Below are positions 30,795 to 37,015 of a DNA stretch of 64,000 bases, one piece after another (position 1 is the stretch's first letter; each line of letters opens with the position of its first letter). The DNA is taken from the NCBI RefSeq assembly GCF_036321535.1, contig NC_087455.1, forward strand, positions 930,001 through 994,000, given 5' to 3'. Both the position numbers and the translations under genes were made by a program. This DNA comes from Camelus dromedarius. Lineage: Eukaryota. Under the pieces are notes generated by a model. That model did not search any database, was not told the DNA's origin, and saw only the letters and a program-made list of their open reading frames with translations.

Positions 30795-31174
30795 TGTGAG
30801 CTGGCCTTGAGATGAGTTAAGGCTGTGGGACCCTAAGGCCACGATCAGAGCATGTTTGCAGATGCAGTAAGCAATTGCTATACACGTGCATCAATTACAT
30901 AAGATTTAGAACAAAGAAAATAGAAGTACGCATATGCTAGAGATATTTTGCAAGCCTAATGAACAAAGAAACTCAGATTGTGCATGTGCTGGCAGAGAAC
31001 AGATAAAAAGCAGGACAGGTGCATCATAGGTGTGCACCTTCCTATGGCAATAATGTTGTTAACCCCATAGTGTCTCTGGCTGAAGTCTGTCCGGCGGTAC
31101 AGCAACTCCTCATGAATTTTTTTGTTTGGGCCCCTCACCTCCTAGAACCCTACGTCAGCCTCCCTCGGCTGACA
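30795..31174 (+). repeat. 5' LTR (380 bp)
   Basis: TGTGAGCTGGCC...CGGCTGACA; ~92% identical to 36637-37015 by manual alignment. Confidence 0.97.
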
Positions 31175-31176
31175 CT

Positions 31177-31194
31177 TGGCACTGTGAGCAGGAT
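31177..31194 (+). other. Primer-binding site complementary to tRNA-Ser(CGA)
   Basis: TGGCACTGTGAGCAGGAT versus expected TGGCGCTGTGAGCAGGAT (17/18; one CpG-type transition), 2 nt after the LTR. Confidence 0.85.
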
Positions 31195-31199
31195 GAGGT

Positions 31200-32303
31200 G
31201 AGTGCCCCCTCTGAACCCCCTGCCCCTGACGGGGATGCTCTGATGGAAGCAAAGTGGCCCCCTACCTCTGTATGGTACCCGGTGGCAGCCTATTGGCTGA
31301 CGTGGGCTCAGCCTGAAGATGGGGACACAGTGGCACCCTGGCCAGATGACATCCGGAGGGCGTTGGAACTGTTAGAAAATTATGTCCCGTTAGCCCACTG
31401 AGAGGCAGCCGGGAGGGCGGCCTGGGTGTTCTTATCTGTTTTACATCACGCTAGCCAAGACATGAGAGATTTACGGTTGCAAGTGGAGGTGTTGCAGTGC
31501 AGAGAAGAGGAGCTTAAGCGGAGACCCAGCACAGCAGAAAGGTGTCCGCATGGTCCTAGCTCCGCCACCACAGAGCAGCTATGCCTGTGTAGCTCCGGTC
31601 CTACCGTCTCTGAGAGCAGTAAGCCTGGCCCCTAGCCCCATTCCACTGTGTCTATGGCCCATGGTGAGGCAATAGGTGGAACTGGAGGAGCCCATGGCTC
31701 AGGGGGGAACTCCTGCGGGACCACAGCGAGTGACACGTGAGTAAACGGACCACGTATTTGAACTTAGTGCAAGTTGTCTGAGAAATGGATGCACCAGATG
31801 ATGTTTGCTTTGCTTTTCCATAGTCTGAATGATGAACTCCTTATAGCTTGAATGAAAGATTTGATTTTGGCTAATGGCCCAACGGGAACGTTTGGGACTA
31901 TGGCAGTGCTACTAGCACCGTATGTAGACCGCCCCATACATGAAGTAACTGAGGCTCTGGCTCATCTGGGAGACACAGAGATGCTCCGAAAGGGGGTGCA
32001 TACTGCCAAGACTCAAGGTGAGTCCAAGACCCCCTCCTCCCATGCAGTGACTCAGAAAGGGAAGTCCACACAGAGGAGGAAAAAGGGGAATGCTCCAATT
32101 TTAGGAGGGCCCCAAAAACTAGATAGCCAGCAGATATGGTGTGATTTACTGGCAGCTGGCTTGGACTGTGTAAAATTAGATGGCCAGCGATTGGAGATGC
32201 TGATGGACTTAGGGAAGAAATTACGGCCTGAGCAACAATATACTCCATTGCCAACCTCCCATCAGGCCTGAGAGGTGGCCTTGCTGATTTCCTCCCGGAG
32301 TAG
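31200..32303 (+). pseudogene. Disrupted ERV gag
   Basis: Located between PBS and protease; fragments such as WYPVAAYWLTWAQ and QIWCDLLAAGLDCVKLDGQ; several stops and frameshifts. Confidence 0.65.
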
Positions 32304-35100: not shown

Positions 35101-35399
35101 AGAATCAGGTCCAGACTGAAGGCCCCTGGCTAGCCCTTTTGGCACCATGGGGCGATGGGCTAGAGAAAGCCCTGCAGGTAACCCCATGAGTGGGGGAATA
35201 GCCTTTTGATGTGCAGGTTACTCTAGGGAAAACAGGAGTGTCCCCACTTAAAGGAGCAGAAGCCCTACGGCTTTGGGCAATTCCACTGATAGCTCCTGAA
35301 GCTCTCCCAGAGTGTAACCAACCTAGTGTGGGCGGGTTGGTGTGGTACCACCGCCCAGGGCGAACAGCCCTTCCTGCCACTGTACTCTCACAGGATGAG

Positions 35400-36627
35400 A
35401 AACTGCTTGCATCCTCCCAGAAGGGAGAGATTTGCCAATCATGGTGTTCACCTCTGCTCTGTCCTTCCATCCAGGGTAACAGCAAATACCATATTCTCCT
35501 GGGCATACACATTCGCGTGAGTCCACCACGCCTCTCACTGTTGGGTCTGCACTGAACTTCCCGTAGACGCAGGAGATGGACTGCTGTGGCACCTCCACCC
35601 CGCGTCCAGAGCTAATTGGTACACCTTGGTTTGATGGAATGCCAACAGGACAGCGAGATTGCCCTGGGACTTGCGGCGGCAGACTATTGAAAAGATCCCC
35701 TGACGTGAGCAGGGCAATGCCCCCCCCCCAAATTGGAAGGACTGTATGGAATGGGTGGGGATGGATGAATAGTGTTCATGTAAAAGTGAGAAATTTTAGC
35801 CCTCTCTGTATTGAGCAGCAGTTTGAACACGAGGCTCCAAACCGCACTGTGGGGTGGCTCCCAGAAGAGCTGTGTGCCAAAATTACTTACAATGTAAATG
35901 CCTCCACCTGGTGGGATGGATGACCTCTAATTGGCACAAAACCCACCGATTTCCTGCCACCAGGGTACCTGTGGGTATGTGGCACCCACGGATGGTCTTA
36001 TCTCCTGGCTAAGTGCACATGGCGCTATACTTGGGGTAGAGCTTACTTGCCTAGACATACCCAGCCCACTTTAACAGAGCGCCCCACAAACTGGGACCCA
36101 CTGCACACCCAGTGGCACAGGGGGAAGCATGCAGCTTGGTGGTTTTATCCCATGGTCCTGTTCCTACCTGGTGCTGGGCCCATCAGTGTCAAATTGCAGG
36201 TAGAAGCTTTGACTCAGCTTATCAGCTGTGCTGAATGTTACTAGAAAAGCTATGGAGGAATTGTTAGATGAGACTACCCAGATGCGAAATGTGGCCTTAC
36301 AAAATAGAATGGCATTAGATATTCTCACTGCAAGCCAGGGTGGCACATGTGCTATGTTACATATTGAATGTTGTATCTATGTACCAGATCACCAGGAGGA
36401 AGTAGCCAAGGCACTGCATGAAATAGATCAGGAATTGGGATCGCATAGATCATGTAACTGAAGACCCTCTTAAGAATTGGTGGTCATCCCTGATGTCCTC
36501 CTGGAGATGGAGCCTAACTGTCCTGGCTATTGTAGCTGCCTGTGTATTGGTAGGCTGCTGTACTCTGTATTGTTGTGGTCTTTGGGCACGATGCTCCACC
36601 CTGTGGGCTAGGGTCCCCACCACCTAG
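35400..36627 (+). pseudogene. Disrupted gamma-type env
   Basis: CWVC (35539-35550); decayed furin site RGKH followed by fusion peptide [36 protein letters not shown] (36297-36347); CX6[11 protein letters not shown]; hydrophobic TM WSLTVLAIVAACVLVG; stop at 36625-36627. Confidence 0.88.
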
Positions 36628-36636
36628 GGGGTGGAA
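36626..36636 (+). other. Polypurine tract
   Basis: AGGGGGTGGAA immediately before the 3' LTR. Confidence 0.8.
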
Positions 36637-37015
36637 TGTGAGCTGGCCTTGAGATGAGTTAAGGCCATGGGACCCAAGGCCACGATTAGAGCATGTTTGC
36701 AGATGCAGTAAATAATTGCTATACACATGCGTCAATTATATAAGATTTAGAACAAAGAAAATAGAAGTACGCATGTGCTAGAGATATTCTGTAAGCCTAG
36801 TGAACAAAGAAACTCAGATTGTGCATGTGCTGGCAGAGAACAGATAAAAAGCAGGACAGGTGCATCATAGGCGTGCACCTTCCTGTGGCAATAAAATGTT
36901 AACCCCATGGTGTCTCTGGCTGAAGTCTGTCCGGCAGTATGGCAACTTCTCATGCATTTTTTTCACTTGGGCCACTCACCTCCTAGAACCCCACATCAGC
37001 CTCCCTCGGCTGACA
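36637..37015 (+). repeat. 3' LTR (379 bp)
   Basis: Direct repeat of the 5' LTR; retains AATAAA, where the 5' copy reads AATAAT. Confidence 0.97.

Follow-up and report, generated by a model that had tools for sequence, protein, structure and literature searches.

The provirus on the plus strand at positions 30795-37015 of the window, by which we mean the whole analysed stretch of 64,000 nucleotides from the dromedary genome, raises two questions: to which group of endogenous retroviruses does it belong, and how did its family express an envelope gene? The original prediction had read it as a near-complete, tRNA-Ser-primed ERV-S-like element of a camelid, and the individual landmarks that it listed all reappear in our analysis. 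The 5' LTR (30795-31174, 380 nt) and the 3' LTR (36637-37015, 379 nt, AATAAA at 36890) have the form TG...CA and share 92% identity (K2P 0.076, or 0.065 without CpG), and exact copies of the 5-bp target-site duplication GAGAC flank them at 30790-30794 and 37016-37020. Four single-cell RNA reads of run X24 cross the 5' flank-LTR junction (30765-30795). The PBS at 31177-31194 is of the tRNA-Ser(CGA) type (type A); over the 15 gene-encoded positions compared it has one mismatch to the 3' end of the same genome's tRNA-Ser(CGA) gene (L131) versus five to the Ser(AGA/TGA) genes L132 and L137. An ATG that overlaps the PBS end lies together with the major splice donor at 31193-31203, and exon 1 ends at 31197. 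Downstream follow gag (31243-32300), which is HERVS-like in a by-eye comparison with published HERVS and in which no Cys-His box was seen, an in-frame TAG (32301-32303), and pro-pol (32304-35479) with PR, RT (LPQGY at 32908, YIDD at 33007), tether, RNase H and an IN with a C-terminal extension. The SU-TM region (35475-36627) has its splice acceptor at the pol stop and carries CWVC at 35539, ISD at 36297 and CX6CC; it is followed by the polypurine tract (36623-36636). Pfam recognizes RVP (weakly), RVT_1, RNase H, rve and TLV_coat (E 2e-10) in this interval. A camelid host is confirmed by the nearest named proteins, which are labelled Vicugna and Camelus, and by a dromedary-labelled protein model that is 100% identical to the paralogous locus L111.

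In the sections of Vargiu et al. (2016, PMC4724089) that deal with HERVS, this group is defined by a class III pol, a serine PBS, the lack of a zinc finger and of a dUTPase, and a PRIMA41-like class I env. The same combination recurs in the camel family. In an RT tree of 41 rows, in which the labels "HERVS-like" and "HERVL-like" were set by eye against published proteins and no labelled class I or class II references were included, the family falls into a starred clade (99/91) together with two HERVS-like database proteins, sequences from bat, mole and armadillo, and the older camel loci; this clade is sister to galliform elements (100/98), and a grouping with the HERVL-like proteins is rejected (p-AU 0.0002). 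Compared by eye, the RT core of the paralog L109 is identical to published HERVS at 93 of 120 positions and to HERVL at about 60 of 120. The gag C-termini of L104, L109, L116 and L119 revealed no zinc finger on inspection and no Pfam match to one either, and a Pfam dUTPase was found neither in the window nor in three long ORFs of paralogs running from IN to the pol end nor in P0002. Homologs of the envelope are named PABLB-like, and CxxC, ISD and CX6CC mark it as a class I (PRIMA41/PABL-like) env. The ERV-L traits, i.e. a dUTPase after IN, no env and a Leu or Met PBS, are absent from the family. Taken together, these features support a classification as ERV-S (HERV-S-like), combining a class III pol, a serine PBS and a gamma-type env without dUTPase.

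We consider it highly improbable that the element is instead an ERV-L-like or class I/II ERV. Such a placement could draw on the class I-like env and on the solved-structure RT matches, which are led by MLV-type enzymes (E 1e-19) ahead of foamy virus (1e-13). PDB sequence searches did not separate ERV classes. The placement is opposed by the HERVS identity of the L109 RT core, by the AU test against the HERVL-like clade, by the missing dUTPase and by the target-site duplications, which are exact 5-bp repeats in 15 of 32 proviruses and have at most one mismatch in 24 of them; class I/II membership is thereby made unlikely in an indirect way, through HERVS match, RT tree and duplication length. 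The ERV-S call is supported by RT tree, by-eye HERVS match, PBS, env, dUTPase absence and duplication length, whereas its novelty, as first framed, was overstated. According to the relevant parts of the published sources, ERV-S-like elements are on record for horse (ERV3-1N-EC, with an env like HERVS) and birds (Vargiu supplement 2, PMC4724089) and for 29 bat species (PMC12402889), and ERVS is described as an amniote lineage (Kojima 2018, PMC5753468), so that ERV-S membership in itself is of a known kind. For camel, we found no paper on ERV-S in the open-access literature.

In the dromedary genome (G000) the family comprises at least 25 env-bearing loci whose match covers no fewer than about 1100 of the 1181 env bases, the search having given 44 matches as a lower bound; an LTR search yielded 257 candidates, of which 40 were scored, and 40 loci were fetched for the family analysis. 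In DNA trees the copies fall into a clade with short LTRs, a grade in the middle, and a younger clade to which the window copy belongs. Between subfamilies, omega (from column-wise counts) is 0.11-0.16 over 288 codons of env (0.09-0.17 in parts) and 0.09-0.27 in gag and pol (pol 0.09-0.27). The low env values indicate that the lineage kept a working envelope during its diversification, and the family likely spread by reinfection, as what would have been an infectious tRNA-Ser-primed retrovirus. Shared deletions, of two types in gag and of RNase H-IN-SU in elements of about 4 kb, suggest mobilisation in trans, which is likely for copies with shared gag or pol-env deletions, the window copy included. 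The approximately 4-kb elements (L122-L130) have a common RNase H-IN-5' SU deletion, belong to two different subfamilies and are likely non-autonomous. U3 starts with a 45-bp unit whose copy number is variable and can differ between the 5' and 3' LTR of a single provirus (LTRs of L093, L098, L104, L107-L109 and L111), with several tandem copies at L091:8554-8833. The same genome also harbours older ERV-S-like and other class III lineages (L142-L150, L159), in several of which a GTAAG donor is still found at the WSGK motif of RT. L093 and L106 are a duplicated provirus whose LTRs differ at 1-2 sites. Recent activity of the family, to which these near-identical LTRs and empty-site contigs in RNA runs might have pointed, was rejected since both are explained by a high-copy repeat (about 97%, at least 361 candidates) in which the two loci sit.

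The description of the window copy as near-complete held in part: its landmarks are all readable, but about 190 nt of RT (a private deletion at 32875-32897) and about 300 nt of gag (near 31735, a deletion common to eight other copies) are missing. About ten further small indels were seen in most of eight comparisons with relatives, stops or indels occur in gag, pro, RT, RNase H, IN and SU, and the SU-TM exon is interrupted by frameshifts as well as a stop at 35518. The copy is among the more decayed members of its own subfamily. The RNase H-IN frame is still open for 324 codons (33913-34887). Selection on this frame was considered and rejected: with 16.5 synonymous versus 22.5 non-synonymous changes it is close to the subfamily average, so the frame was retained by chance. 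If the rate is taken to be 1.2-2.2e-9 per site and year, the LTR divergence gives an insertion age of about 15-32 Myr. Since the alpaca models P0001 and P0290 are 92-93% identical to the window copy and at most 89% to other copies, the sequences suggest that the alpaca carries an ortholog. The window copy is an ordinary decayed ERV-S insertion, decayed like its siblings and without sign of selection. It is flanked by a C2H2 zinc-finger gene on either side (19.6-21.0 kb on the minus strand and 46.6-47.6 kb on the plus strand), and DUF4515 and epimerase genes are nearby. The second of these zinc-finger genes has an exon with five fingers (46645-47571) between the ERV and the epimerase gene, and a compound TG microsatellite in which a 12-nt spacer recurs occupies 41800-42010. 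The neighbourhood resembles human CCDC166-ZNF623-GFUS.

Three properties of the family had been missed in the original prediction: a dimorphism of the PBS, an amber stop between gag and pro, and an env exon overprinted on RT. Regarding the PBS, 17 of 41 loci are of the Ser(CGA) type and 17 of the Ser(AGA/TGA) type (two of them duplicates), one is ambiguous and six have none that is readable. Exact genome matches to the respective tRNA ends number one for the Ser(CGA) type and ten for the Ser(AGA/TGA) type, all of them tRNA-Ser genes. The trees need 3-4 changes of PBS type, 2-3 of which are forced by starred branches, against about ten with shuffled labels. Within the young clade, and with L093, L106 and L094 left out, the LTR pairs of CGA-type copies are more diverged (median 0.083, n=8) than those of AGA/TGA-type copies (0.052, n=7; p=0.013). 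PBS instability is generally known, as stated in the pertinent part of PMC4724089; a search of the open-access literature for PBS switching between serine tRNAs returned no paper. The switch between two serine tRNAs provides a dated example of a primer change within one lineage.

The gag-pro amber TAG is in frame in 30 of 36 copies, and Pol would be made by readthrough of this stop. No clear stimulatory RNA structure was found behind it, the local fold being weak (-7.9 kcal/mol) with little covariation. In gammaretroviruses, too, an in-frame stop separates gag from pro. Gag would start in U5, where the frame has an ATG in all subfamilies and then runs through the PBS; a modest synonymous excess in this frame (7/19 vs 6/55, p=0.03) comes from comparisons that are not independent. 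In U5 of the window copy the sites of two upstream ATGs common to most relatives can be located, at 31067 in the env-leader frame and at 31099 in the gag frame, and neither reads ATG here.

How, then, was Env made? SU begins at a pyrimidine-rich acceptor located at the pol stop, whose AG is present in 26 of the 28 copies read. Upstream of this acceptor we found neither an in-frame start nor a hydrophobic leader in the SU frame, the best 11-residue hydropathy mean there being 0.84 in the window copy vs 2.0 in a second exon that lies inside RT (exon 2; 33047-33166 in the window, where it is open). A strong donor 3 nt past the PBS keeps its GT in 28 of 34 copies, and a second strong donor was not found in 5' gag. 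Exon 2 was located in 34 copies, with seven further loci in which it was not found; it is 120 nt long in 31 of the 34, across all subfamilies, and is bordered by AG in 34 and by GT in 32 of them. Its second frame, which is not the RT frame, encodes the most hydrophobic N-terminal stretch. In the RT frame beneath it, the two most divergent subfamilies (short-LTR vs young) show no synonymous difference on 30.7 sites, where 7.7 would be expected (p=0.0005). Across gag, pol and env, 40-codon segments without synonymous differences start only at codons 301-319, and the exon covers codons 312-352 of that ORF.

Gene models point to the same structure. Four camelid models of 304 aa (P0269, P0286, P0287, P0289; alpaca and Camelus) map exon by exon on the paralog L105 and consist of three exons, namely U5-PBS, an RT-internal exon of 40 codons, and SU. 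The exon 2 stretch W-x-x-C-Q-I-x-x-C also stands at the N-terminus of env models from three Equus species, Rhinolophus and the sloth Choloepus, and in the older camel ERV-S loci L144 and L147 it lies in the same overprinted frame, with an ATG of its own in L147; in three more distant class III loci the motif was not found. The locus is a decayed provirus of a camelid ERV-S family that, in our view, probably produced Env from a doubly spliced mRNA in which a 120-nt exon, read in a frame other than that of RT, supplies the predicted signal peptide. Exon 1 (R-U5-PBS, ending 3 nt past the PBS) would give the start codon, for which U5 and the PBS end each offer an ATG; exon 2 would contribute the hydrophobic core of a signal peptide predicted from hydropathy and position, and exon 3 the mature SU-TM. 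A selected signal peptide encoded in U5 is not supported, as no codon-level selection is apparent in the U5 env-leader frame. The leader ATG is missing from most short-LTR copies, and either ATG may have served as start codon.

RNA contigs from four of 24 available runs, aligned to L093, bear on the individual joints. A joint from the LTR end to the exon 2 acceptor appears in two of the four runs, from two studies, with the PBS letters of L105, its exon 1-exon 2 assignment being set by the letters between the joint sides. One contig leaves at the exon 2 donor, and in one of the four runs the SU acceptor is used from a donor in IN. An exon 2-to-SU joint is absent among the joints listed for the four runs; it rests on computed gene models. 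The source of the RNA is host transcription of decayed paralogs and not a replicating virus.

A rival reading is an ordinary ERV-S with a singly spliced env, in which the host made the RT exon by cryptic splicing after insertion and annotation pipelines picked it up: the same RNA data contain other cryptic joints (from a gag donor to exon 2 and from an IN donor to SU), and exon 2-to-SU is not among the joints listed. We regard this as unlikely, because a singly spliced env would lack an in-frame start and hydrophobic leader ahead of SU, because the synonymous freeze lies exactly under exon 2, and because the same motif recurs in horse, bat, sloth and older camel lineages. The absence of divergence in a single tract could also have arisen by recombination between subfamilies. 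If the freeze reflected a recombination tract or an RNA structure of RT, the Env leader might derive from an exon in U5 or in the Gag frame that is joined to SU without an intermediate exon; the PBS donor is indeed in phase with the SU acceptor, and U5 of young copies is open and hydrophobic in that frame. However, a direct joint from PBS donor to SU occurs in none of the four RNA runs, that U5 frame shows no selection, 5' gag has no strong second donor, and the horse, bat and sloth models begin with the exon 2 stretch, which renders a direct leader quite improbable. We thus favour the doubly spliced env. A description of an env signal exon overprinted on RT was not found in the open-access literature, which does not cover the original HERV-S papers; in the sections relevant here, the equine placenta study (PMC4866760) concerns a class I EqERV and does not mention a signal peptide. 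The doubly spliced env with its probable RT signal exon is present in automated annotations.

L105 (G000:C2:79933400-79943399, minus strand) deserves attention as a spliced SU-only ORF in alpaca and camels. Among 17 young copies measured it is the only one whose SU is open throughout, with 220 codons ahead of a stop, the 304-aa model is present in alpaca and Camelus records, its CxxC reads CWVY in alpaca and all camel records, and its splicing is seen in RNA contigs of two runs. Between alpaca and camels SU differs at 6-7 of 220 residues, fewer than the RNase H-IN of the window copy (22/302, p=0.03) and also fewer than the leader exons of L105 itself (8/84, p=0.03). The omega of L105 against the subfamily is 0.66, like that of other copies, and the AlphaFold prediction of the SU-only model (pLDDT 32) is unusable. 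Co-option as a secreted SU is a tentative idea that we rate as rather doubtful. Full-length ERV-S-type env models exist for donkey, horse and Przewalski's horse (P0266, P0277, P0278; 433 aa each), for Rhinolophus (P0267, P0282) and for the two-toed sloth (P0268), and it is possible that these equine, bat and sloth models are captured genes.

That an RT-overprinted exon encodes the Env signal peptide throughout mammalian ERV-S, with L105 and the horse, bat and sloth envelopes as overlooked host-captured genes, is in our view a serious possibility that falls slightly short of even. If true, screens for env reading frames from ATG to stop would mis-call or miss ERV-S envelopes, which affects searches for syncytins and restriction factors that look for single-exon env ORFs. 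A signal exon inside RT would also explain the way in which a captured class I env was taken into a class III gag-pol: the mature SU was linked to an exon cut out of the element's own pol. As we know of no infectious ERV-S member, the gene-expression strategy of this group has to be read from fossils.

An env start supplied by an upstream exon is known from ALV, which uses gag codons, from gypsy and from the snakehead retrovirus, and their split env exons resemble those of the camel family. A truncated env kept by the host as a co-opted, secreted SU protein is known from suppressyn. We know of no signal peptide overprinted on RT in ALV, gypsy, snakehead retrovirus, ARTenvV or suppressyn. ARTenvV, as described in the consulted part of PMC9604959, is also a truncated env retained as a co-opted secreted SU; it derives from a different env, and camelids lack its ORF. 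HERV-S (HERV18/HERVL18, LTR18), within the coverage of PMC4724089, shares with the camel family the class III pol, the serine PBS, the absence of dUTPase and zinc finger and the PRIMA41-like class I env, and its gag, pro, RT, IN C-terminus, SU and TM match by eye. The camel family is nevertheless a separate lineage, with about 78% RT identity by eye and its own LTR subfamilies, and the HERV-S text in the relevant parts of PMC4724089 and PMC5753468 contains neither env splicing nor an RT signal exon nor PBSs for two serine isoacceptors. XtERV-S of Xenopus, according to the corresponding sections of PMC8278194, has a class III gag-pol, a class I TM, 5-bp target-site duplications and an in-frame gag-pol stop in common with the camel family, and its Ser(AGA/TGA) PBS equals one of the two camel types. 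It differs in its dUTPase-like region, in an env with its own start and a 19-aa signal peptide, and in a splice donor upstream of the PBS, none of which is found in the camel family, where the donor follows the PBS. Further parallels are horse ERV3-1N-EC and the Equus, Rhinolophus and Choloepus env models (P0266, P0282, P0268), which share 43-46% Env identity and the same N-terminal motif. These three models are full length and have an ATG closely before the motif, whereas the camel exon 2 lacks one and would take its start codon from exon 1.
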